56,294 nt of DNA from Bacilli bacterium (GTDB lineage: Bacteria > Bacillota_I > Bacilli_A > RFN20 > CAG-826). Location: positions 1-56,294 of the forward strand of contig JAFSPN010000025.1 of NCBI GenBank assembly GCA_017442875.1, in the 5' to 3' direction. Shown here piece after piece: positions 2,801 through 14,965 of this stretch. A program made the position numbers and the translations under genes. The notes beneath the pieces are model-generated. The model saw only the letters and a list, made by a program, of their open reading frames with translations, was not told the origin of the DNA and did not search any database. Numbering within the stretch: the stretch's first letter is position 1; every line of letters starts with the position of its first letter.

Positions 2801-4844
2801 ATTCTTCTTCAGGTTTTTTCATTATCTTTAGGCGATAAACCAAACCAAATACACCACCAGAGACCAAAAGGAATAAACCGATATAGAATAATGGTCTAGT
2901 TGCTTGATATTGTGTTGACCCTTTGAAACTAATAGAAACATCATATGTGCCTTTCTTTAATTCAAAAGCCACTAGGCCATCGACGTTTTTAGCTTCGCCT
3001 AAATAAGTGGCACCACTATAAATGTAATAACCTTTGTAATAAAACTGTGGTAACTGCACTAAAGCGATATCGCTTGTAATATCAGCGTGGAATTTATTGT
3101 TAGGAGAATTATATTCATAGATTTGCAAAGATCCACTGCCTTCTAAGAAAGCTGGTTCATAATAATCTTCTATGGAATAAATAAAATTTGCGTGGCTATT
3201 AAGAGCGCTTCTCACTTTTGAATGCAAAGAGTTTGGATAAGACGGTTCAAAATCTTCTCTTTCGAATATTTGTGGCACCATTTCATTTTGTACGCCGGAA
3301 TACCTAATCTTTTTAGCGTATTCATAGCCATCATTAACAATAACGCTTTCGGGTTTTACTTCGTAATAGATTCTCTTTTCTAATGTGCCCATGGTAACGG
3401 TCATAACAAAGCAAGCCGCGACTGCGGTTCCGATTAAAGCAAAACTCTTAGCCTTGAAACGAGAAAGAAGTAGCGCCACAAGCATCGCCACTAAAAACGC
3501 CGTAATGCTCCACATTCTCCAGGCAAATTGGCCTTTATATAATATGGATGGGACATAGTACCAAGAAGTTGGTACGAAAATAAGAATGATACAAATAATA
3601 ATGGAAATAGTGAGGAAATATAAATCAACATTCTTATATAAAGGAATATTTTCTTCGTTTTGGCTTGGTAATTTCTTAATTAAGAAAGAAATAAAGAAAT
3701 AAAGGATCAAAGATATAGCAATCGCTAAATAGATTTCTATTCTCACTTGGAAAATAAGCGGGAAGACAAAAGCCGCTAACGTAGCAGCGGGATGACGGTA
3801 GTATTTACTATATTTAAGTGGTTTTAATAAGTAATCCACTAAAATTGCACCAATCATCGCTACGAAATATAAACCTGCACTAAATAATAGAGACGAAACG
3901 TTTTCATTGTTCCACCAGTCAGCGCCTTGACTGTTAAAAATATGGATGAGATTAAGAAAACCACTGAAATTATATGATCTTGATGTTTCAGAGGCCATAT
4001 GTTCATAGGTCGTCCACTGCCTTACATCGTCAGAAACGTTATAGTAATTTAAGCCATCATAGTAATAAGTATTACTGACATAGAAGAGCACTAAAAAGAC
4101 TGTGATAATCAATGATGCACCTAAAGAGATAAATGCTTTGTAGTTTTTACGGTTATCATAGATAGTTTTAACATTACATATGACATATAAACCACCAAAA
4201 ATAGCGGTTATAAGACCCGTAAATGGGTGAGATAACACAATTAACGCTGCACCAAGAGAAAAGGCCACATATGGTTCAACTCGATAATCTTTATCGTGTA
4301 AGAAACTATAAGCACCATAGAACACCATCGGAATTAATGCCATAGCGACGCTTTCAGCGAACGCACATCTCGCTAAGGCACAGAATATACGATATGGAAG
4401 GAAAATGAATAAGACCGCGGAAATAAGAGCTACCACTTGATGACCTTTAGACATTTTAAGGGCGAGTTTATACATGTAAATGCCACCTAAAATGCCACTG
4501 GCAAAAACCATGAACTTAAGGCCCACTAATGGAGTAGCGCCAGCCCAGCTAAATAAAACAACAAATAATCCTGCTCCATAATGGGTAACTGGTCCATAAA
4601 AACCAAAATTATATAAAGCAAAGCCACCCATAAACAAATGATTTGTGGATAAACCAAAATAGCCATGTCTAATGCCATAGACGACATCATTAACCATACT
4701 TAAATGGAACGCGACATCATCTCCACCCGCTAAACCAGGAAGAAAATAAACATAGCAAGACAATAATGCTGCGATAGTAACGACAACATACGGGAAGTAC
4801 TTTTTAAAAATGTTAAGAAGTCTTTCTTTGGTCATGGTGAACAT
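2799..4844 (-). CDS. polytopic membrane protein, GT-C-fold glycosyltransferase-like (YfhO/ArnT/PMT-like)
   Basis: The protein has more than 12 predicted TM helices, an acidic GGDD motif in the first external loop, a soluble domain of about 190 aa near the C-terminus, and a final TM helix. The family assignment rests on architecture only. Confidence 0.45.
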   Translation of the reverse strand: MFTMTKERLLNIFKKYFPYVVVTIAALLSCYVYFLPGLAGGDDVAFHLSMVNDVVYGIRHGYFGLSTNHLFMGGFALYNFGFYGPVTHYGAGLFVVLFSWAGATPLVGLKFMVFASGILGGIYMYKLALKMSKGHQVVALISAVLFIFLPYRIFCALARCAFAESVAMALIPMVFYGAYSFLHDKDYRVEPYVAFSLGAALIVLSHPFTGLITAIFGGLYVICNVKTIYDNRKNYKAFISLGASLIITVFLVLFYVSNTYYYDGLNYYNVSDDVRQWTTYEHMASETSRSYNFSGFLNLIHIFNSQGADWWNNENVSSLLFSAGLYFVAMIGAILVDYLLKPLKYSKYYRHPAATLAAFVFPLIFQVRIEIYLAIAISLILYFFISFLIKKLPSQNEENIPLYKNVDLYFLTISIIICIILIFVPTSWYYVPSILYKGQFAWRMWSITAFLVAMLVALLLSRFKAKSFALIGTAVAACFVMTVTMGTLEKRIYYEVKPESVIVNDGYEYAKKIRYSGVQNEMVPQIFEREDFEPSYPNSLHSKVRSALNSHANFIYSIEDYYEPAFLEGSGSLQIYEYNSPNNKFHADITSDIALVQLPQFYYKGYYIYSGATYLGEAKNVDGLVAFELKKGTYDVSISFKGSTQYQATRPLFYIGLFLLVSGGVFGLVYRLKIMKKPEEE

Positions 4845-4885: not shown

Positions 4886-5827
4886 TTATTTAAGAAAATC
4901 CGCTACTACCTTGATATAACGATCAGCGTCAGTTAGATATGATGAGCCGTGATTAGCGCCTTTAAATAATTCATATTGGATTTTATCTGGATAGGTTTCG
5001 TATAGTTTTTGGCTAATATGATGAGGCACAACCTGATCACTGTCACCATGGACAATTAATATCTTATTTTTTGTGTTTTTAACAGAGTCATAGGCTGATA
5101 CTTTATTGAGATTGGTATGACCATATATTATCGAAGATAAATTGACTAGTGGATAAAAGAACTTTGGCGATAACTTAATGGCTTTAAGCGTCTCTTGTAA
5201 GATGATTCTTGGGCTTGAATAAGGACAATCCACTAATAATTTCATATTCTCGACTTTATCAGCGGCTAATAAAACAGTGGCACCACCCATTGAAATACCG
5301 ACGAGAATGTATTCATAGTCTTCACCAAATCTATTTTTAGCGTAATCTACCCACGATACTAAGTCTTTTGACTCTCTAACACCAAAGGTGATGGAATGAC
5401 CTTGGCTCAGTCCGTGAGCGCGATGGTCAACCGTAATAATCGAATAGCCTAAATCCATGAATATTTTTGAAGCCGCACAAAAATCACGATAAGTTGTGCC
5501 GCGATATCCATGGAACATAAGAGCGACTTTTTTAGAGCCCTTAACTTCAAAATAACGGGCATGAAGTTTTAACTTATCAAACGATTCAATATATAAATCT
5601 TCAAATGGTCTCTTTTTAAAAGCGTCAATCATTGGAATAAGTCTTTCCTTATACGGACCAAAAATTGGCCCATCAAGGTCTGTATAATCATCCAATTGTC
5701 CTTTTTTTGGAGAATAGAAAGAGAAGCGATATAGTAAATATAACGCCAAGAAAAATAGGATGGTGAACAATAATAAGACGCTACCAATGACAATTAAAGC
5801 TATCAACATGTTTTTATTATAAAACAT
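4886..5827 (-). CDS. membrane-anchored alpha/beta-fold serine hydrolase
   Basis: It has an N-terminal TM helix, the nucleophile elbow GISMGG (G-x-S-x-G), a later HGDSDQVVP (Asp) and ANHGSS (His), which together fit a catalytic triad. Confidence 0.8.
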   Translation of the reverse strand: MFYNKNMLIALIVIGSVLLLFTILFFLALYLLYRFSFYSPKKGQLDDYTDLDGPIFGPYKERLIPMIDAFKKRPFEDLYIESFDKLKLHARYFEVKGSKKVALMFHGYRGTTYRDFCAASKIFMDLGYSIITVDHRAHGLSQGHSITFGVRESKDLVSWVDYAKNRFGEDYEYILVGISMGGATVLLAADKVENMKLLVDCPYSSPRIILQETLKAIKLSPKFFYPLVNLSSIIYGHTNLNKVSAYDSVKNTKNKILIVHGDSDQVVPHHISQKLYETYPDKIQYELFKGANHGSSYLTDADRYIKVVADFLK

Positions 5828-5952
5828 TATTTAAAAAATATTGAAATAACTATTGACTATTAATAAAAAAGGACTAATATAATGTATTCCTAATCGGAAT
5901 ACCTCGTCCCAAGCACGACGTTAAAAGGCTATAGAAAAGAGGTATTCTGATT

Positions 5953-6174
5953 ATGAATAAGTACACATTGGAAGCCATTGTAGACGGTGAGTACATCAAA
6001 TTCAACCGCCTCTTCGCAAGTAGAGATGCGGCAATCGATTATATCTTCCGTTACTACGACAATCACTATCTCGTGAACTTAGCCGTCAATGAAGAATATT
6101 GCATTGATGGAAACAAACACGATATCGCTTATGTCTATGATTACTACAATCGCTTCAGAATCGCTAGAGCATAA
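5953..6174 (+). CDS. small hypothetical protein (73 aa)
   Basis: An AAGAGG-like SD lies upstream and the terminator hairpin follows directly. No recognisable motif. Confidence 0.4.
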   Translation: MNKYTLEAIVDGEYIKFNRLFASRDAAIDYIFRYYDNHYLVNLAVNEEYCIDGNKHDIAYVYDYYNRFRIARA

Positions 6175-6192
6175 TGCTCTTATCAAGAAATA

Positions 6193-6230
6193 ACGACCAC
6201 ATGCATTAATTTGAGGTGGTCGTTTTATTT
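6193..6230. terminator. bidirectional intrinsic terminator
   Basis: ACGACCAC...GTGGTCGT forms an 8-bp stem with a T-run on the plus side and an A-run on the other side. It overlaps the stop codon of the minus-strand acyltransferase gene. Confidence 0.7.
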
Positions 6231-7049
6231 ATCTATTCTTTTTGAATTATTGAATATCGGTGGGTATGGATTTTCTTTCGGATCGACATCTGCAAGATGA
6301 CAAACAGCGTTATGAACGCGTGTTGTTAAATCGATTCTTTGCTCTTGTTCTGAGAGATTATCATCTTTTAAGATTGGTTCGCCCACTACCAAAGTGATGG
6401 CAACTTCTTGCCTCATAATATGTTTTCTAAACCAACTTGGTTTCCTAAAGGAAAAACCAAATGGTAGTATCGGTTTATTGGTGCGGCACGCTAAAGAAGC
6501 AGCGCCTAGTTTAAATGGACGAATATATGGGTAGCATTCCCACATACTGCCTTCTGCATATATTTGTAAGAATTCGCCTCTAGCAAGGGAATCTTCAATT
6601 GCTTTATTAAACGCTACTTTGCCAGCCAAATCACCATCAGGAATTGGAATTCCGCCCACCATTCTTACTAACGGTCCGTTTTCGCCTCTCACATTAGGGG
6701 CCCACACAATAACATGTGGCTTCCTTGGTCTAATGGCCTTCATGATGGCGATATAGTCCCACATATGAATATGATTACTAACTGTAATAGCCCCTTCTTT
6801 TAATTGATCTTTATATTTCTTAAGATTCTTTCTATTTTGGATTCTTAAACCCATATATAAAGGACACATTGGGAAAACAATGAGGTTTAATAATAAGCGT
6901 ACCCACCACTGTTTAAATCTAAAGCCTTTAGAACGATCAATATATGGATAATTTTCATCAAAAACTGCACCATTATTCTTTTTAACAACTAGATAATGAG
7001 CGTCAGTATTTTCTGGATAATTGTATTTAGTACTATGTGGGTCAAACAT
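6225..7049 (-). CDS. lysophospholipid (1-acyl-sn-glycerol-3-phosphate) acyltransferase family protein
   Basis: It carries the H-x4-D acyltransferase motif (NHIHMWD), an EGS block (YAEGSMW), and one TM helix near the N-terminus. Confidence 0.75.
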   Translation of the reverse strand: MFDPHSTKYNYPENTDAHYLVVKKNNGAVFDENYPYIDRSKGFRFKQWWVRLLLNLIVFPMCPLYMGLRIQNRKNLKKYKDQLKEGAITVSNHIHMWDYIAIMKAIRPRKPHVIVWAPNVRGENGPLVRMVGGIPIPDGDLAGKVAFNKAIEDSLARGEFLQIYAEGSMWECYPYIRPFKLGAASLACRTNKPILPFGFSFRKPSWFRKHIMRQEVAITLVVGEPILKDDNLSEQEQRIDLTTRVHNAVCHLADVDPKENPYPPIFNNSKRIDK

Positions 7050-7081: not shown

Positions 7082-7114
7082 AAAAAAGAAGCGGACAATT
7101 CCGCTTCCTTTTTT
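7082..7114. terminator. intrinsic terminator closing the minus-strand ncRNA candidate
   Basis: GAAGCGGA-caat-TCCGCTTC forms a perfect 8-bp stem flanked by A6 and T6. It lies upstream of the acyltransferase start, so it can only terminate a transcript arriving from the right on the minus strand. Confidence 0.75.
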
Positions 7115-8140
7115 GTAACCGTGGTACCCGAATTATAAGGGCGAGCCTTATCGATACCCGAGTTAAGCTGCATTCGCTGGTGATGCTTCTTTCTTACAAT
7201 GCGTTTTGAACTGAGTAGCGCATTGATGGCCAGCTTTCCTAAGTTATTTGCTTTAGGACTGTTACCCTCTTCGTCATGTCCGGTGCCGGATTTACTCTGC
7301 CAAGCTTTAACGCAGATGCCGGTGGCTATTGCTAGCCAGGTGGGGTCGTACCGATTACTGCTATTTCTAACAGCCGTTGCTAGTGCAACCAGTTAACTGT
7401 GGCTCTTTAATCCTCAGATGCTCCCGTGTCAGTTTAGAGGAGCTGGTTGACTGATCTAGTCTTAAGTTCTTTAGGCCATTTCTTCGCGGAATTTCCATTC
7501 TGGGTTCTTCCGTTATCTCCACACTTTGAGTTGAGTAATGTGGATTAGGCTTTTCCGTTATGTTTTGCATAACAGGATGCTTGTTTTTCCCTCTTCGTCT
7601 TTGTGTCCGGCGGAAGTCTTACGCTGTCAAACTCTAATTCAGCGGCTTCTGAAACAGTGAGGTTTGCCGTTTGGATTTCCCGAAGGATTTCCAGCCTTTT
7701 GCGATCATTGACTGGGAACTTTAATCCCAGAGCCTTACTATCAACGTCGTTTTAGTGGTGATCGTCTTACTTTTAAGGCTAAGTTTTCGCCCATTTGCTA
7801 TCTGTGCCATTACTGACCAGGTAACTTATTTCAGGTTTTGAGTTGCTTTAGCCTGAATGTGGGGGGTTGATGGGTAATTGGCCTTCATCATCCTCTTCGA
7901 TCGTGTCGGGCGGTGGATTTACGCTGTCAAACTCTAATTCAGCAACCACTGTAGCAGGGAGGATTCGCCTTGGTTGAATTGCTTCAACCTGCCAGTGCAA
8001 TCATTGATCTAGGCTTTTTCTTTAATCCTAGAAGACGCGTTATCAACTTAGCTTCCTACGCTGATTGTCTTACCTGGTCTTGAGATACTAAGAATCTATC
8101 AATTCTTAGTTTCTCACTCACTCGGTTTCCCGGGTGGGTT
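7085..8140 (-). ncRNA. candidate large structured ncRNA (about 1.05 kb) built from three tandem homologous modules of about 300 nt; class unassigned (GOLLD/ROOL/OLE-like size class)
   Basis: The region is ORF-free apart from two SD-less overlapping 65-67 aa ORFs and is visibly more G+C-rich than its flanks. It is bounded by a promoter-like site and a terminator. On the minus strand it has many tetraloop-capped hairpins: GGUUGAA-GCAA-UUCAACC (7972-7989), GGCUA-GCAA-UAGCC (7324-7337), CUGUUA-GAAA-UAGCAG (7358-7373), a UUCG-capped stem (7673-7692) and a 9-bp stem (8087-8110). An exact 25-nt repeat occurs at 7619-7643 and 7919-7943. Stem changes between modules are compensatory. Confidence 0.55.
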
Positions 8141-8176
8141 TCTATAGTATGCCACAAAATAAAATATTAATGCAAC
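8141..8176 (-). promoter_or_regulatory. putative sigma-70-type promoter of the ncRNA candidate
   Basis: The minus strand reads TTGCAT (8170-8175), an 18-nt spacer, then TGgCATACT (-10 at 8146-8151). Confidence 0.35.
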
Positions 8177-8349
8177 ACTTTTTTTAATTTTTTTCATTTT
8201 TTTATAAAATATTTTTCTAAATAACATAGTTATTTAAATTTTTAATATTTTTTTAAATATTTATTAATTAATTGTTTTTATAGGAAAAATAAGTCATTTT
8301 TTATCGAAATTTTAATTATTTTTATTTTTGCCCATTTTATATATACGCA

Positions 8350-8372
8350 TAAACGTGCCCGTATGGACACGC
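8350..8372 (-). terminator. probable terminator of the ABC exporter operon
   Basis: The minus strand reads CGTGTCC-atac-GGGCACG, a 7-bp stem with one G.U pair, followed by a T-rich tract. Confidence 0.45.
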
Positions 8373-8397
8373 TCGCTCGCTTTCTTTTATATATTAA

Positions 8398-10113
8398 CTA
8401 TTTATATTGTGATGAATATAAGGAATAGTAGAATCCTTGTTTTTGCATTAATTCTTTGTGATTACCAGTTTCCACTATTCCACCATCTTTCATAACGATA
8501 ATAATGTCGGCTTTTTCAATTGTGGATAATCTATGAGCAATAACGATTGATGTTTTTTCTTTCATCATTTGATCAAACGCTTGTGTAATGAGCATTTCAC
8601 TACGAGTGTCGATATTAGATGTCGCTTCATCCAAAATGACTAGTTCAGGATTTAAGAGCATCACTCTAGCAATCGCAATCATTTGTCTTTGACCTTCTGA
8701 TAAACCAGATTTGTTACTCACTAACGTCATATAGCCATTAGGAAGAGTGTTAATAAAAATATCAGCGTGTGCCTTTCTTGCGGCCTCAACAACTTCTTCT
8801 TGGCTAGCCTCTTTTTTGAAGTAACGAATGTTGTCTAAAATCGTCCCACTAAAAATCCAAGTGTCTTGCAAAACCATACCGATTTTTTGTCTTAAAGATT
8901 GCTTAGAAATGTCCAAAGAAGATTGTCCGTTTATGCATATATTTCCAGAGACCGGATCATAGAATCTCATGAGTAAATTTATGAGTGTTGTTTTGCCAGC
9001 GCCAGTCGGTCCAACAACCGCTACTTTTTGACCTTTTTTGATTGCTAAGTTAAAGCCCTCAATAAGCTTCTGATTTTCACTATATGAGAAGGTCATGTTT
9101 TTAAATTCAATAGACTCAATTGAAGAGATATTGTCGAATCCGTCATCAACATCGTTTTCAAGATTTAAGAAGTTATTAATCCTAGTAAAAGACGCCTTAG
9201 CATTCTCATATTCTGCAGCGACATTTGAGATCTCGTTAAATGGTTTACTATATTGATTTGTATAGGATAAAAAGCTTGACAACCGACCAATGGTCATGAC
9301 TGCGAAAACGACCGCAAGCTTTGCATCATATGAGAGCATAACAACGCCAACAACACCGATTAAAATGTAAATTGTGTTGTTCACTAATCTTGTTGATGGA
9401 TTGACCCAACAAGCAGAAAACTGCGCAGATCTGGCTTCTTTTTGCAGTTTTCCGTTCATTTCGCCGAATTTTCTAATAGATTCTTCCTCATAATTCAAAG
9501 ATTGGACTATATCGATGTTATTAAGCGTTTCTAATGAGATAGAGGAGACATTAGCTTGAAGTTCACTTTGCTTTTTGAAACGCTGACGATTGGCTTTCGA
9601 AATGATGTTTGCCATGATCATACTAAGCGGGGAGAGAACAATAACGCCAACGGCCAAAATCCAGTTCACTGCAAACATCATGATAATCGTTACAGCAATG
9701 GTGAAAATACCTTGAATTAATGTTTTGAAGACAGCATATAATCCAGCGGATAAATTCTCCATATCTCTAATCTCAAGAAGCACTAAATCACCATGGGCTT
9801 TTTGATCAAATTCTTTTATCGAAATAGCGTTGATTTTTTCAAAGACATCGTCTCTTGCTTTTTTAATTATTTTTTGAGAAACATTCATTACAATAACTTC
9901 AAAAATATAAGCAAAAATAGCGCCGATAACGACCAAGCCAAGAGCGATGAAAACATAAATATAAAACTCTTTTTGTTCAGCATCTAGCGCTCTGCCCAAT
10001 AAGAAAGGTTGTCCGATTTGGCTGATAGTAAAAAGCAAAGCAAAAAGTAGCGAAGTGACAAGCGACACACGCATTGGTTTTAAATATTTAAACAATCTCT
10101 CTTTAGATGTCAT
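8398..10113 (-). CDS. ABC exporter fused permease/ATPase subunit with a consensus ATP site
   Basis: It has a six-TM N-terminal half, Walker A GPTGAGKTT, signature LSEGQRQ, and Walker B VILDEATS with the catalytic Glu. Confidence 0.9.
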   Translation of the reverse strand: MTSKERLFKYLKPMRVSLVTSLLFALLFTISQIGQPFLLGRALDAEQKEFYIYVFIALGLVVIGAIFAYIFEVIVMNVSQKIIKKARDDVFEKINAISIKEFDQKAHGDLVLLEIRDMENLSAGLYAVFKTLIQGIFTIAVTIIMMFAVNWILAVGVIVLSPLSMIMANIISKANRQRFKKQSELQANVSSISLETLNNIDIVQSLNYEEESIRKFGEMNGKLQKEARSAQFSACWVNPSTRLVNNTIYILIGVVGVVMLSYDAKLAVVFAVMTIGRLSSFLSYTNQYSKPFNEISNVAAEYENAKASFTRINNFLNLENDVDDGFDNISSIESIEFKNMTFSYSENQKLIEGFNLAIKKGQKVAVVGPTGAGKTTLINLLMRFYDPVSGNICINGQSSLDISKQSLRQKIGMVLQDTWIFSGTILDNIRYFKKEASQEEVVEAARKAHADIFINTLPNGYMTLVSNKSGLSEGQRQMIAIARVMLLNPELVILDEATSNIDTRSEMLITQAFDQMMKEKTSIVIAHRLSTIEKADIIIVMKDGGIVETGNHKELMQKQGFYYSLYSSQYK

Positions 10114-10114
10114 T

Positions 10115-11911
10115 TCAACTCCTCTTCACCTGTGTCTCATATATCTCTTTATAAATTGGACAATTATTTAACAAATCATCGTGCTTTCCTTGCCCCACAA
10201 CTTGTCCACCTTCTAAAACCAAGATGAAATCAGCGTTTTGAATCGTCGATATTCTTTGAGAAACAATAACTTTGGTCATTTCTTTAATAGCGGCTATATT
10301 TGTTCTAATCTTTTTATCAGTTAAAAGATCTAACGCTGACATCGAATCATCAAGAATTAATAACTCAGGTTTTTTAACTAATGCCCTACCAATGCACAGC
10401 CTTTGTTTCTGGCCACCTGAATAGTTAGAAGCGCCTTCTTTAACGGGATGATCGATTTTGTCCTCATATCTATCAACAAACTCAAAAGCCTCTGCTTGTT
10501 TTAAAGCGCTATAAATATCTTCATCACTTGCGGTCTTGTTGCTCATTAAATAATTGGACTTAATCGTGCCATTGAATAACGATGATTTCTGATTAACTAA
10601 TCCAATATCATTTCGTAAAGCTTTTAAATCATATTCCCTGATAGGAACACCTTTGTAATAAATCGTGCCTTCAGAGACATCGTAAAACCTTTCTATTAAG
10701 TTAATAATCGTGGTTTTACCGCTACCAGTTCCACCGATAATGCCGAACGTTTCGCCTTTTCTTATCTCAAAGTTGAGATTATTTAAAAAATAAACACCAT
10801 CATTAAATGAAAAACTGACATTTTCAAATTTAATGAGTTCTTCGCCTGCTTTTACTTCGCTAATTTTAGAATTCGTATTGCTGGTAATTTCTGATTCAAT
10901 AGCAAAAACGGTATTGATTCTTCTTCGGCAAATGCCGGCTTTAACAATTTCCACACTGATTTGCGATAACTGTGTAAAGGCAAAGAATATCTGTGCCAAG
11001 AAAGCCATTTCGGCAATAATTGTGGAAGATACTAAAACGCGATTCTCAAATAAATCATTTTGTAATAACAAAACAATGACAATTAAGACTGTTGAAGTGA
11101 TTGCAAATGTTAATGGATTGATAAGGGCGTTAAGGCGATTTACTTTAATGCTCTTTTCTTTATAAGATCTCGTTTTTTCTTCAAATTTTTGGTTTTCTTG
11201 TTTTTCTTGATTACTTGCTCTTATGACACGCGCACCATCACTTGTTTCGTTTGTGCTTTCTGACAAACCTTCTAAGTCATTTTGAATTTCGATATATTTC
11301 TTTGATGATTGTTTAAGAATCAAAATGTTGACTAAAAGCACTAAAGGGGCAATGGCGGTGAAAGCCAAACCCACTCTCCAATCCAAAACAAAGGAAAGAA
11401 CAAGTGAGCCAATAACAGTAAAAGGAGCGCGAACAATTAGTCTAATTAGTAAGTAAACGCCTTGCTGCACTTGATAAGTATCACTATTCAATAAGGTGAC
11501 TAGCTTAGCTTCGCCTATATCTTCTCTTTCTTTTTTGGATAAGCTTAATAATTTAGCGTATAAAGAGGTTCTGATTTCCGTTCCGACATTTGTTGAAGCT
11601 CTCGCGGCCAAATATTGGCTACACATGGTGATAGCATATCCGACAATGCCCATTATCAGAATGATTAGAGCTCCAGCAATCGCATCCCCTATCGCAGTTT
11701 TGCTAGGATTAAAAATCCTAATAAAAGAAGCTAAACGAGAACTTATAATATGCGGAATATCGCTAGGATTTTGGTAGGCATTTAAATCAATAATAGCCTT
11801 CATGAATAAAGGGATAAGCAAATCAAAAAATGCTTCAATAATCTTTAAGAACGGACCAAAGATGATGCTAGCAAGATTGCGTTTATATGACTGTTCAACT
11901 CTCGTTATCAT
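10115..11911 (-). CDS. ABC exporter fused permease/ATPase subunit with a degenerate ATP site
   Basis: It has Walker A GGTGSGKTT and signature YSGGQKQ. Walker B is LILDDSMS, with Asp replacing the catalytic Glu. Its stop lies 1 nt before the next start, which suggests translational coupling. Confidence 0.9.
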   Translation of the reverse strand: MITRVEQSYKRNLASIIFGPFLKIIEAFFDLLIPLFMKAIIDLNAYQNPSDIPHIISSRLASFIRIFNPSKTAIGDAIAGALIILIMGIVGYAITMCSQYLAARASTNVGTEIRTSLYAKLLSLSKKEREDIGEAKLVTLLNSDTYQVQQGVYLLIRLIVRAPFTVIGSLVLSFVLDWRVGLAFTAIAPLVLLVNILILKQSSKKYIEIQNDLEGLSESTNETSDGARVIRASNQEKQENQKFEEKTRSYKEKSIKVNRLNALINPLTFAITSTVLIVIVLLLQNDLFENRVLVSSTIIAEMAFLAQIFFAFTQLSQISVEIVKAGICRRRINTVFAIESEITSNTNSKISEVKAGEELIKFENVSFSFNDGVYFLNNLNFEIRKGETFGIIGGTGSGKTTIINLIERFYDVSEGTIYYKGVPIREYDLKALRNDIGLVNQKSSLFNGTIKSNYLMSNKTASDEDIYSALKQAEAFEFVDRYEDKIDHPVKEGASNYSGGQKQRLCIGRALVKKPELLILDDSMSALDLLTDKKIRTNIAAIKEMTKVIVSQRISTIQNADFILVLEGGQVVGQGKHDDLLNNCPIYKEIYETQVKRS

Positions 11912-12016: not shown

Positions 12017-14965
12017 ATGAGTAAAACATTTATTTCGTATTCGTCAAACGATCAGCTTTTTGCTGACCGTCTTGTTGCCTATCTTGAAGACAAGGGAATT
12101 CCTTGTTGGATTGCCTCTCGCGACATTCCAAGTGGCAAAGATTTTACTGAGTGCATTACCGAGGCTATTGAAAACTGTCAATACTTTGTATTAATTGGTT
12201 CTGAAAGTTCCAATATATCTCGCCAAGTCAGAAATGAAATAGCCATGGCTTTTGATCAAGAAAAAACCATCATTCCCTATAAAATTGAAGACTTTAAATT
12301 TTCCGACTCCATCAACTACTATTTAAGATTAAAGCAATACATTCACGCTTTTAGGTATTCAGAAACGGAAGGCTTTGACAGACTCGCCAATTCAATTCTT
12401 AACGACATTAAAGAAATTGCCGACGACAAAATGTCTTATGCACCAGCATTAGAAAGTGATCTTGGATCTGACTTTGATCGAAAAAGAATCGGTGAATTAT
12501 TAATTGAAAGGAATAGGAAATACCCTTCTTCACTCTACTCAAAATTTAACAAGCAAAAAGAGAAGGTTGACGAGTATCGCCAATTATCCAGCGTTTTTTA
12601 TAAGCAAGCCTTTACATTAAAACATCTCAATAAAGCAATCGAAACCGATGATTTAATCAATGAACTTATTGATAGAATTGAAGATTGTAACCAAGAGATG
12701 GTCTTTAGATTACAAGCACCAGCGGGTGTTGGCAAAAACCATCTCATGCAATCGTTATTCTTTAATATGATAGAAAGATTCATGAATAACGAGAGTGATA
12801 TCCTTCCTATCTATATTCCTTTTGATTATTTCACGAAGGTGAATAGAAATGACCATGATTCGGAAATTTCGATGTATACCATTTTAAAAAATGAATATAT
12901 TGAGGCTATTAACTTCTGTTTAAACAACCATGAAGTCACCGCTTTTATCATGTTTGATTCCATCACAAATTATTTAATTTCACAAAAACCACCGGAGACG
13001 TGCACTAAAAGATTGTTCTCGTTCCTACCAAACATCAAAAAAGCAATGGCTATTGACCGCGGCCCAACGAGAAACCCAATAAGACTTAAAAAAGACTACA
13101 TTTTCATGGATCAAATACCCCGCTATATCATCGAGGCTAATTTAATTTTTGCATCCGATAAAGAAGGCGCGATGAAATATTTGGAAACAGTCTGTAAATT
13201 ATTTGATTGTAGTGTTACTCCAGAAGATATTTACGAAACAAGCAAAGAATTAGGCTTTGGCTGGTTTGATCCTAGCATTTGCAATCTCATTGAAGAAGAG
13301 ATTATGGGTAATATTTCTGACATCTCTTCTTTAACCATGGCAGATGTTTATGAAAATCATGTTTTAAGAATATTAGATAATAACAAGAACGCTTTAGTGG
13401 CCACTGCGAAGATGGCATATCGCTACATGACCACCAACGAAAAATTTGACGACGAATATTCTAACGATGGCTGGATTGTTATTGGTAAACATGGAACATT
13501 CACTTCTTTCTTAATGGCATACTATCTAAGGTGCGAATTAGAAAATTATTCTAAAGAAAGCAATCCTGAATGTTTTATTAGATTCTATCCAAAACGCGTT
13601 GTTAGTTTTATTGCCATGTATATTGAAAAATCAAACGTTCTCCAAAGAGCGGTTATTAACTTAATTAAAGATAATTACAAGGAAAGAAACGACTCTGAAA
13701 GAGCGAGATTGATTTTCTGGGCTGCCTATATATCCAACCCCGCTTTAAAATCTGAAATCGATCAATTTGTGCTCGATGAATTAAAACGTATCACACCACT
13801 AGTAAAAGAGAGTAATAAAAAGAACCCAGAAGAAGATACCGAAGGTGTAAGATCGTTACAAATTCTTTATCGAATCCTTGTTCAAGTATCTCTTGAAATG
13901 GGCAAGACCACATATATTGATGGCTTCTTATGCAATTTGCTTGTCTCCGACCAAGCTAACAGTATAAACAAAGGTTATTTGTTGTTCTATTACAGTGATG
14001 TCCCTGTAGATTTCACCGAAAGATCAATACGTTTTTATGATCCAGTTGAACTTGGTTTTAGAACAATCAATCGTTTAAACGAGATATTATCAACCGAACT
14101 ATCTAGTCCACGCAACAACCGACCAATCGAGTTGTTCTTGTTCTCCTTCTTCTCCCTTTTGCAAACACGTATTGAGTTTGGCACGCCAGAACTCCCCAGA
14201 GTGGATTTGGTCCAAATGTGTAAAAACGCTATTAAATACTTCCAACAATATAAGAGGAGGCAATCAGTTATTACCTCAAGAAGAACAATACGATACTTTG
14301 AAAGTATGTGTGAAGACTTTAGCACTTTCATTGAAAGAGGAAGAAAAATTAATTTCGGCGCGGAAATTCTCAATCCGATGCTCAATCCAAACCTCACACC
14401 AAGAGCAAACTGGCAAGGTGTCAAAACAAGCCGCGTTGAAACAGTAGCAGAACACTTGTATGGCACTTTCTTAATCGGTATGTTCCTTTTACCAGCGCAA
14501 AGTAATGATGCGGAAGGATATAACAAAAAAGAAATCCTAGATATGCTGTTAATTCACGACATTGGTGAGGTACGTGCGGGTGATAATTCCAGTATAGTTA
14601 ACGAAACACAAAAGCTGGTTGATGAAGCTAATGAAGACAAAGAAATGCGCATGCTCATGCAAAAAGGCACATACGCAGAAATCGCTAACTTATCAACATT
14701 CTATAATCAATGGAGTGGCTTCGAAGAGAAAATGAATGTCAACGCCAAGATAGCTCACGACATTGATATTATTCACACAATCTATCGCTTTTTGCTTTAT
14801 TACAACGAATCCAAAGAAAACTTCACACAAGAAGAAATCGAAGCCTTTGCGGATAGACGCAACGACATCATTACAGAAATCGGCATGAAAACATACCAAA
14901 CGATTATCTTGGATAACGAATTGTTCTTTGATGCATGCCAAGAATTAGGATTAGAAATTATCTAA
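12017..14965 (+). CDS. TIR - STAND-like P-loop NTPase - helical region - YfbR-type HD phosphohydrolase fusion protein
   Basis: A GGAG SD is present. The TIR domain reads TFISYSSNDQLFADRLVAYLEDKGIPCWIASRDIPSGKDF...SRQVRNEIAMA. The P-loop is QAPAGVGKN and the Walker-B-like motif is AFIMFDS. The C-terminal HD reads VAEHLYGTF...LLIHDIGEVRAGD, the 5'-deoxynucleotidase YfbR/HDDC2 pattern. Confidence 0.75.
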   Translation: MSKTFISYSSNDQLFADRLVAYLEDKGIPCWIASRDIPSGKDFTECITEAIENCQYFVLIGSESSNISRQVRNEIAMAFDQEKTIIPYKIEDFKFSDSINYYLRLKQYIHAFRYSETEGFDRLANSILNDIKEIADDKMSYAPALESDLGSDFDRKRIGELLIERNRKYPSSLYSKFNKQKEKVDEYRQLSSVFYKQAFTLKHLNKAIETDDLINELIDRIEDCNQEMVFRLQAPAGVGKNHLMQSLFFNMIERFMNNESDILPIYIPFDYFTKVNRNDHDSEISMYTILKNEYIEAINFCLNNHEVTAFIMFDSITNYLISQKPPETCTKRLFSFLPNIKKAMAIDRGPTRNPIRLKKDYIFMDQIPRYIIEANLIFASDKEGAMKYLETVCKLFDCSVTPEDIYETSKELGFGWFDPSICNLIEEEIMGNISDISSLTMADVYENHVLRILDNNKNALVATAKMAYRYMTTNEKFDDEYSNDGWIVIGKHGTFTSFLMAYYLRCELENYSKESNPECFIRFYPKRVVSFIAMYIEKSNVLQRAVINLIKDNYKERNDSERARLIFWAAYISNPALKSEIDQFVLDELKRITPLVKESNKKNPEEDTEGVRSLQILYRILVQVSLEMGKTTYIDGFLCNLLVSDQANSINKGYLLFYYSDVPVDFTERSIRFYDPVELGFRTINRLNEILSTELSSPRNNRPIELFLFSFFSLLQTRIEFGTPELPRVDLVQMCKNAIKYFQQYKRRQSVITSRRTIRYFESMCEDFSTFIERGRKINFGAEILNPMLNPNLTPRANWQGVKTSRVETVAEHLYGTFLIGMFLLPAQSNDAEGYNKKEILDMLLIHDIGEVRAGDNSSIVNETQKLVDEANEDKEMRMLMQKGTYAEIANLSTFYNQWSGFEEKMNVNAKIAHDIDIIHTIYRFLLYYNESKENFTQEEIEAFADRRNDIITEIGMKTYQTIILDNELFFDACQELGLEII

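Follow-up and report, generated by a model that had tools for sequence, protein, structure and literature searches.

What kind of element occupies the interval between an acyltransferase gene and an ATP-binding cassette (ABC) transporter operon in the genome of a Bacilli bacterium? The stretch of DNA analyzed (56,294 nt; GenBank assembly GCA_017442875.1, contig JAFSPN010000025.1, positions 1 to 56,294), referred to here as the window, contains at this site about 1 kb that a reading of the letters without database searches (the sequence-only reading) had attributed to a large, structured noncoding RNA (ncRNA) transcribed from the minus strand, in the size class of GOLLD, ROOL, and OLE. This proposal was borne out, and the RNA is in fact longer than those three. 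The gene extends from position 8140 to position 7082 on the minus strand (~1,060 nt), and it is the single gene of this kind in the window. It is probably a stand-alone, modular ncRNA gene whose product acts in trans as a large folded architecture, and the anatomy of the RNA described below can be given with high confidence.

Three cow-rumen-1 motifs in a single RNA

A scan of the whole window with Rfam at the gathering thresholds gave exactly three matches, all of them to RF02946 (cow-rumen-1) on the minus strand, with E-values of 1e-14 to 2e-18. Each match covered model positions 1 to 61, and the scores (83.1, 73.2, and 70.3 bits) compare with a gathering score of 53.4. The sequence-only reading had been unable to assign the repeat to an RNA family; in fact, each unit of the RNA contains a full-length, above-threshold match, so that part of the RNA is already catalogued. 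No tRNA, riboswitch, T-box, or other Rfam family reached the gathering threshold across the window. The models that had been singled out for a check (GOLLD, ROOL, OLE, HEARO, and raiA) gave no match over the region of the RNA even at an E-value of ≤10, nor did riboswitch or T-box models; at this cutoff the only matches besides cow-rumen-1 were weak, terminator-like small-RNA noise at the terminator hairpin. In six homologs, ROOL, GOLLD, OLE, HEARO, and raiA were not matched at an E-value of ≤1.

The 61-nt model represents ~20% of each 300- to 347-nt module and ~6% of the whole RNA. Start to start, the motif copies are 327 and 300 nt apart, and a 34-nt degenerate pattern derived from cow-rumen-1 occurs three times in the window versus 0 expected, which together with the Rfam E-values excludes chance as an explanation for the repeat. 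Rfam curators are said to have noted that copies of cow-rumen-1 tend to cluster. The exact 25-nt repeat previously noticed at 7619 and 7919 was confirmed, the CTTTAATCC loop was found in all three units, and the CCTCTTCG box is present in each, at 7266, 7590, and 7892 (the first two positions had been off by one). The three tandem units are indeed homologous copies, but the boundaries that they had been given were arbitrary; the modules as delimited here are listed in Table 1. Also missed in the earlier account of the structure were the 5′ leader, the 3′ tail, the pseudoknots, and the contacts that chain the modules.

Cow-rumen-1 was introduced by Weinberg et al. (2017, Nucleic Acids Res 45:10811; PMC5737381), where the supplement describes it and the main text contains no discussion of it. 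In the searchable literature, neither "cow-rumen-1" nor RF02946 was found, and a fixed three- or five-module gene with leader, tail, promoter, and terminator, assigned to named lineages of metagenome-assembled genomes (MAGs), was not found there either. What is new here is the full gene, the pseudoknot formed by the tail of the motif, the helix between apical loop and receptor, and the kissing loop; the 61-nt core is already in Rfam.

Gene boundaries and coding potential

The interval is G+C rich, as had been noticed, with a G+C content of 0.43 to 0.49 over 7100-8100 versus 0.19 to 0.44 around it (0.19 to 0.30 at 8100-8500 directly upstream and 0.28 to 0.44 in the flanking genes). The TTGCAT-N18-TGgCATACT site that had been read as a promoter is present on the minus strand, and the block of UP-like region, -35, and -10 is kept in register in 32 homologous genes with an overall identity to the window copy of 60 to 87%. 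Ahead of each of these aligned genes lie an A/T-tract, a TTGaca-like -35, and a cATACT -10. A simple sigma-70 scan of the locus missed this promoter. Transcription would start near 8140.

At the other end, a terminal hairpin and U-run are found in 32 of the 32 aligned homologs. The terminator noticed earlier is present, with its hairpin and U-run on the minus strand at 7113-7082. The statement that it could serve only a minus-strand transcript is not strictly correct: because an A-run and a T-run flank the hairpin, it also scores as an intrinsic terminator on the plus strand, and it is thus bidirectional in shape. Judged from these signals, the RNA gene has a predicted sigma-A-type promoter and a predicted intrinsic terminator. 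The RNA is assigned to the minus strand on four grounds: its promoter, its terminator, the orientation of the Rfam matches, and the G-U intermediates.

The locus has no credible open reading frame (ORF), in agreement with the sequence-only reading. The ORFs present are only 40 to 67 amino acids long. The longest antisense ORF (7199-7396, plus strand; 65 amino acids) is intact in 2 of 52 homologs, and its variability by codon position (0.165/0.187/0.173) shows no codon periodicity, with no excess at the third position; a protein-coding reading of this ORF was rejected on these grounds. Gene callers set small ORFs (37 to 80 amino acids) inside the RNA gene, both in the window (7199-7396, plus strand) and in related loci (L001, 4823-4936; L003, 765-962; L004, 3-245). 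Because the 65-amino-acid ORF is intact in so few homologs, these calls are considered annotation artifacts.

Upstream of the promoter, the intergenic region at 8180-8330 has a G+C content of only ~0.19 and contains an AT palindrome (8197-8224) as well as A/T tracts that are phased. Beside the -35, the block of A/T tracts is kept among the homologs and is UP-element-like.

Covariation and the structure of the modules

Thirty-two whole genes (1,050 to 1,105 nt) were aligned with MAFFT (alignment A1; 1,235 columns), and all column pairs were scanned without bias for runs of at least 3 pairs with at least 85% canonical pairing. The scan recovered the expected hairpins and also long-range helices, the latter once per module. 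The curated model comprises 43 helices and 217 pairs in four bracket layers, which denote crossing helices. In A1, 93.6% of the cells of these pairs are paired and compensatory changes occur at 123 pairs, compared with 28 to 42% paired and 27 to 39 compensatory pairs in slid controls; none of 500 shuffles matched the curated model. Conservation and covariation among homologs, on which the sequence-only reading had made its proposal depend, are thus decisively present, and the covariation of stems between units and the tetraloops are as it had described them. With its length, its lack of coding capacity, and this number of helices, compensatory pairs, and crossing helices, the window RNA qualifies as a large ornate ncRNA.

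Nearly all complete copies share one layout, which runs from the leader through modules 1, 2, and 3 to the tail and the terminator. The inner P2 helix of the leader is 98.8% paired with 5 compensatory pairs, and P1 and the outer part of P2 covary too (helices 1-4). In each module, Pb (CAAUCA/UGAUUG, CGAUCA/UGAUCG, and CAACCAG/CUGGUUG in modules 1, 2, and 3, respectively) is 97 to 99% paired, the Pc loop carries GUUGAUA, the Pd hairpin bears the GGAUUAAAG loop, and Pe is capped by GCAA, UUCG, or GAAA. Module 3 and the tail form the best-conserved stretch of the gene (conservation, 0.81 to 0.93). Pairing is only 58 to 62% for the GGAUUAAAG hairpin of module 1 and for the variable hairpins in the first two linkers (helices 9 and 26) because MAFFT misaligns them, not because the hairpins are absent.

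The two stems of cow-rumen-1 correspond to Pf and Pg of each module. The outer 4-bp and inner 5-bp stems (helices 12/13, 23/24, and 36/37) are 98 to 100% paired with compensatory changes. The apical 3-bp stem of the Rfam model, closing a UAGA loop, is 87.8% paired (68% in module 3) with 2 compensatory pairs; it shares nucleotides with a long-range helix of 5 to 6 bp, helix t, with which it competes and compared with which it is less well supported. The window RNA agrees with the Rfam entry in its strand, in both nested stems, in the conserved CCGGACA..CGAAGAGG tail at the 3′ end, and in its ruminant fore-stomach habitat. However, the tail that is unpaired in the model is paired in the window RNA. 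Helix b (CCUC/GAGG) encloses the motif, and helix a (GGGC/GCCC, CGGC/GCCG, and UCGGU/ACCGG in modules 1, 2, and 3) crosses helix b, so that the supposedly unpaired tail of the motif is a pseudoknot.

Three candidate structures were set aside. An alternative pairing in module 1 (AUCAAC/GUUGAU) is broken in several species, whereas Pb (CAAUCA/UGAUUG) covaries; a helix closing the 5′ and 3′ ends (AACC/GGUU) has a variable 5′ side and an invariant 3′ side; and a whole-molecule fold made with RNAalifold contained spurious long-range pairs and served as a starting point only.

Long-range contacts

Two long-range contacts recur in every module (Table 1). In helix t, the apical loop of the cow-rumen-1 motif pairs with a strand 140 to 170 nt downstream that abuts Pa of the next module. 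Helix k is a kissing interaction between the Pc loop and a hairpin loop, which lies in the linker or, for module 3, in the tail. The three copies of helix k (helices 8, 19, and 31) are 97 to 98% paired in A1, and the copy in module 3 covaries (ACUGA/UCAGU versus AUUGA/UCAAU). Because the conserved 3′ tail holds the partners of both module 3 loops, it can be regarded as the receptor set for that module.

Since helices t and k were found on A1 itself, they were checked on separate, held-out sequences. Thirty-eight metagenome genes were added, the 20 that were <95% identical to any A1 row were kept, and only these were counted. The values for each helix, designated U1t to U3t and U1k to U3k, are given in Table 1 next to those of slid controls. 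New compensatory variants appeared in the held-out RNAs in U1k (AGUCA/UGACU), U3k (AAUUAG/CUAAUU), and U1t (AGACUU/GAGUCU). The loops also pair best with the receptor directly downstream, in 52 of 52 sequences for U1-R1, 50 of 52 for U2-R2, and 52 of 52 for U3-R3, and the module 3 loop is orthogonal to the other receptors (0/52). Five-module genes show the same chaining, with each receptor immediately 5′ of Pa of the next module or of the tail helix.

In the resulting model, a 60-nt leader is followed by three ancient homologous modules of ~300 to 347 nt each, every one consisting of a multi-helix junction, a cow-rumen-1 hairpin locked in the a/b pseudoknot, and a linker. The apical loop (GAGUUU) pairs with a 6-nt strand running directly into Pa of the next module, the GUUGA loop of Pc kisses the UCAAC hairpin loop in the linker, and the 3′ tail supplies both receptors for module 3. 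With two long-range contacts tying each module to elements that precede the next, the modules are chained head to tail structurally as well as covalently.

Relatives, hosts, and module number

The 34-nt pattern identified 135 related loci, of which 95 are in metagenome contigs and 40 in species-representative genomes. All of the latter are in MAGs, labeled Bacilli, Bacillales, or Erysipelotrichaceae, and most of the isolate or contig names of these MAGs refer to the rumen, reticulum, or omasum, the hosts being cattle, goat, yak, water deer, water buffalo, and reindeer. The RNA is, so far, restricted to uncultured rumen Bacilli. Contigs encoding an identical acyltransferase were 100% identical over the RNA and were therefore of no use for covariation.

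According to a hidden Markov model (HMM) of the motif, nearly all complete loci carry exactly three motifs, spaced ~297 to 315 and then ~316 to 334 nt apart, and there are 32 complete three-motif arrays in genomes and 38 in metagenomes. Units at the same position in different genomes are 68 to 72% identical, whereas units at different positions are 49 to 55% identical, within an array or between genomes alike; position-specific HMMs cross-match the other units with E-values of 1e-7 to 1e-34. As units at the same position are more alike than units at different positions, the triplication predates the divergence of the species and each position has its own type.

A rarer form of the gene has five modules (leader-U1-U2-U1′-U2′-U3-tail; ~1.65 to 1.7 kb), the duplicated part being the U1-U2 pair. 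It was found in L022 (oriented 5249-6899), L025, L047, and L097, and its layout was seen in many partial contigs too. RF02946 matches follow module number, with three per three-module gene and five per five-module gene.

About 20 metagenome contigs hold the RNA only, at 1.00 to 1.05 kb for three modules or 1.58 to 1.69 kb for five. Their 5′ ends lie 10 to 25 nt inside the leader, downstream of the inferred start of transcription, and their 3′ ends are in either the tail or the terminator. To judge from contig names, the samples from which they came are almost disjoint from those that yielded contigs with flanking DNA. These contigs may be metatranscriptome assemblies.

Evenly spaced homologous units, each ending in an invariant and single-stranded-looking GACA..CGAAGAGG box, could also belong to a polycistronic precursor, a ~1-kb transcript cut after each CGAAGAGG box by an RNase or by self-cleavage into three or five separate ~300-nt RNAs, each working on its own as in a tandem array of small-RNA genes. 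The existence of arrays with 3 and with 5 units would make sense if copy number matters. However, each position has its own orthologous type in a fixed order (1-2-3 or 1-2-1′-2′-3), the CGAAGAGG box is base-paired in helix b, covarying contacts link each module to elements abutting the next, a dedicated leader and tail are conserved, and the RNA-only contigs are full length. Cleavage into separate RNAs is thus quite improbable compared with a single chained molecule.

Several MAGs have two or three RNA genes that are only 73 to 79% identical to one another (L011, L020, and L029 in one MAG, JAZQVN01; L023/L040; L046, L059, L080, L107, and L132), and some complete genes are in tandem. Such paralogous genes within one genome could be distinct isoforms rather than recent duplicates.

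Degenerate partial copies, one of them a lone module 1 fragment and the other half of module 3 with the tail, lie a few hundred bases from intact genes in L037 (oriented 2186-2405) and L097 (oriented 3248-3474). They suggest gene turnover or decay.

Genomic context

The proteins flanking related loci fall into 42 unrelated clusters. The nearest downstream gene is on the opposite strand in at least six arrays, and the acyltransferase is kept downstream in one lineage only. There is no tRNA in the window and 1 among 46 related loci. No match to the RNA was found in phage and plasmid records with blastn. In viral contigs, the strict motif pattern had 0 matches, and a looser pattern had 14, all of them chance 30-nt matches in which nhmmer found no module. 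Among the flanking proteins, no transposase or integrase is consistently linked to the RNA loci. The variable neighbors, the lack of a tRNA or phage link, and the several diverged copies per genome point to a stand-alone, trans-acting RNA rather than a riboswitch.

The gene arrangement in the window could be taken for that of a cis-regulatory leader, in which three sensor domains arranged in tandem in a very long 5′ untranslated region would govern whether transcription passes the terminator into the acyltransferase gene. The RNA and this gene are co-oriented, only 33 nt separate the end of the terminator from the ATG, and 10 related arrays have a gene of this family downstream of the RNA. In other arrays, however, the genes after the RNA are unrelated or, as noted above, on the opposite strand; a genome can have several diverged copies, including two complete genes in tandem; and neither a sequence that competes with the terminator nor an Rfam riboswitch or T-box signal was found. 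Control of the acyltransferase gene in cis is therefore very unlikely.

The multiple copies in varied genomic contexts, the decayed partial copies beside intact ones, and the small ORFs that gene callers place inside would also suit a locus that is not an RNA gene at all, such as a DNA-level repeat (the end of a mobile element, iterons, or a satellite) or a degraded or small coding region. This explanation is scarcely credible. A conserved ORF, codon periodicity, and a consistently linked transposase or integrase were not found, and the promoter and terminator are conserved at fixed ends. What effectively refutes it is the covariation, with 123 pairs kept through two-sided changes and G-U intermediates that read correctly only on the minus strand.

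Comparison with other RNAs and possible function

ROOL, GOLLD, and OLE are homo-oligomers whose subunits associate through kissing loops and A-minor contacts (Kretsch et al. 2025, Nature, PMC12286853). The window RNA resembles them as a bacterial ncRNA of >500 nt with many junctions, pseudoknots, and kissing loops, in which long-range contacts join repeated copies of one fold, although their copies are separate molecules resolved by cryo-electron microscopy (cryo-EM) and the contacts here are seen by covariation only. ROOL, moreover, was also first found in rumen data. In contrast to all three, the window RNA has its repeated folds covalently joined in one transcript and diverged into position-specific types, it does not match their models at the cutoffs given above, and its class, at 1.05 to 1.7 kb, is longer than the sizes quoted for those RNAs. 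ROOL and GOLLD, according to PMC5737381, are often found beside tRNA genes or in prophages, whereas the window RNA has no such association with tRNA genes (1 in 46 loci) or viral contigs.

Homologous domains arranged head to tail with a terminator after the last are also known from the tandem glycine riboswitch and tandem T-boxes. The domains of the window RNA are several times larger, the gene that follows it varies and in some arrays is on the opposite strand, its terminator showed no alternative pairing, and Rfam gave no matches to these families.

A scaffold or sponge, in which conserved loops (GGAUUAAAG, GAUAG, and GUAAG) bind one protein per module and so titrate or assemble 3 or 5 copies of it, would be one specific form of trans action. 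The many invariant unpaired nucleotides at equivalent places in every module, the modular build with its variable module number, and the strong, conserved promoter agree with this possibility. On the other hand, no protein gene is consistently adjacent, the conserved loops are equally explicable as RNA-RNA tertiary contacts, and known sponge repeats are much smaller than these modules and have far less intricate folds. Unlike the CsrB/RsmZ sponges, which have many short hairpins with GGA in their loops, the window RNA has large, complex folds with one GGAUUAAAG hairpin per module, in which GG is in the stem. A protein-binding sponge is thus an unlikely function.

The preferred interpretation, a modular RNA acting in trans as a large fold, leaves room for more than one kind of function. 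By analogy with ROOL, GOLLD, and OLE, the RNA might serve as a scaffold or undergo assembly, each module offering an equivalent surface for a protein, a ligand, or self-assembly; this functional assignment is tentative. It is also possible, with similar reserve, that the RNA represents a new class of giant modular RNA in which a self-associating fold of ~300 nt was fused head to tail and specialized by position. The RNA could then perhaps be likened to a covalently linked hetero-oligomer with a defined nano-architecture, corresponding within one molecule to the cages of ROOL and GOLLD, and its role in uncultured rumen Bacilli would probably be protein-independent or scaffold-like. On the preferred interpretation, the RNA would be a covalently linked counterpart of homo-oligomeric RNAs, and neither an antisense nor a cis regulator.

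Several points weigh against this interpretation. For part of the structure, derivation and first count relied on one and the same alignment, a circularity that the held-out test mitigates. Kissing helices 1 and 2 are almost invariant, so that they are supported mainly by analogy with module 3 and by a few variants. The sequences would fit long-range contacts within one molecule or between molecules alike. Single-sequence folding does not separate the strands (z = -4.2 for minus and -3.8 for plus). The RNA-only contigs could alternatively be a multi-copy repeat collapsed in DNA assemblies. Finally, the functional part draws on analogy.

To our knowledge, few bacterial ncRNAs apart from rRNA and group II introns exceed 500 nt, and the window RNA would rank among the largest. 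It would also be the first bacterial ncRNA known to us in which tandem homologous modules are linked into a chain by pseudoknots and kissing loops that covary. If the model is true, the covalent concatenation would show RNA quaternary structure evolving by gene fusion and subunit specialization, as in proteins. The RNA lends itself to cryo-EM, and RNA nanotechnology could make use of its modules. For databases, the correction is from a small orphan Rfam motif to a complete gene with ends, a testable model of secondary and tertiary structure, host lineages, and three- and five-module variants; for genome annotation, it concerns a locus at which gene callers currently put spurious small ORFs in rumen MAGs.

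Table 1. Features of the RNA gene and its surroundings in the window, with pairing of the long-range helices in held-out sequences
Feature	Position	Strand	Description	Held-out sequences, % paired (slid controls)
Promoter	8146-8200	minus	A/T-tract UP-like region, ~8200-8178; -35 TTGCAT, 8175-8170; 18-nt spacer; TG-extended -10 CATACT (TGgCATACT), 8151-8146	
5′ leader	8081-8139	minus	Hairpin P1 (ACCCAC...GNRA-type loop...GUGAGU) and hairpin P2 (GAGA..AAGAAU-UGAUAG-AUUCUU..UCUC)	
Module 1, 300 nt	7781-8080	minus	Rfam, 83.1 bits; helices 5-15	
Module 1 core	8080-7953	minus	Pa/Pb/Pc, GGAUUAAAG hairpin, and GCAA hairpin	
Module 1 cow-rumen-1 motif	7952-7892	minus	83.1 bits	
Module 1 linker	7891-7781	minus	CAACU hairpin loop, 7845-7841; receptor AAACUU, 7786-7781	
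Module 2, 317 nt	7464-7780	minus	Rfam, 70.3 bits; helices 16-27	
Module 2 core	7780-7653	minus		
Module 2 cow-rumen-1 motif	7652-7590	minus	70.3 bits	
Module 2 linker	7589-7464	minus	UCAAC hairpin loop, 7534-7530; receptor GAACUU, 7469-7464	
Module 3 and 3′ tail, 347 nt	7117-7463	minus	Rfam, 73.2 bits; helices 28-43	
Module 3 core	7463-7326	minus	Extra GCAA hairpin	
Module 3 cow-rumen-1 motif	7325-7266	minus	73.2 bits	
3′ tail	7265-7117	minus	UCAGUU hairpin loop, 7214-7209; receptor AGCUU, 7169-7165; closing helices T4/T5	
Intrinsic terminator	7082-7113 (hairpin 7113-7082)	minus	GAAGCGGA-AUUG-UCCGCUUC, then UUUUUU; 14 pairs and U-run	
Helix t, module 1 (U1t)	7934-7929 with 7786-7781	minus	Helix 14; apical loop GAGUUU; 100% paired, 3 compensatory pairs	99.2 (29-65)
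Helix t, module 2 (U2t)	7634-7629 with 7469-7464	minus	Helix 25; 99% paired, 2 compensatory pairs	100 (32-66)
Helix t, module 3 (U3t)	7307-7303 with 7169-7165	minus	Helix 38; 100% paired, 3 compensatory pairs	100 (20-60)
Helix k, module 1 (U1k)	8048-8044 with 7845-7841	minus	Helix 8; kissing; Pc loop AGUUG with CAACU hairpin loop	97 (6-39)
Helix k, module 2 (U2k)	7745-7741 with 7534-7530	minus	Helix 19; kissing	100 (21-42)
Helix k, module 3 (U3k)	7434-7429 with 7214-7209	minus	Helix 31; kissing; 4 compensatory pairs	94 (4-49)
Acyltransferase gene	6225-7049	minus	Pfam Acyltransferase; downstream neighbor of the RNA gene	
ABC-transporter gene pair	8398-11911	minus	Upstream neighbor of the RNA gene	
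RNA-only contigs	Whole contigs		L045, L052, L053, L056, L069, L073, L075, L077, L088, L094, L104, L108, L113, L115, L117, L119, L120, L121, L137	

Neighboring genes

Divergent from the ABC-transporter gene pair, a gene at 12017-14965 on the plus strand encodes a 982-amino-acid protein that has a TIR_2 domain at its N terminus and an HD_3 phosphohydrolase domain at its C terminus. From its domain architecture, this protein looks like an anti-phage defense or NAD-signaling protein.

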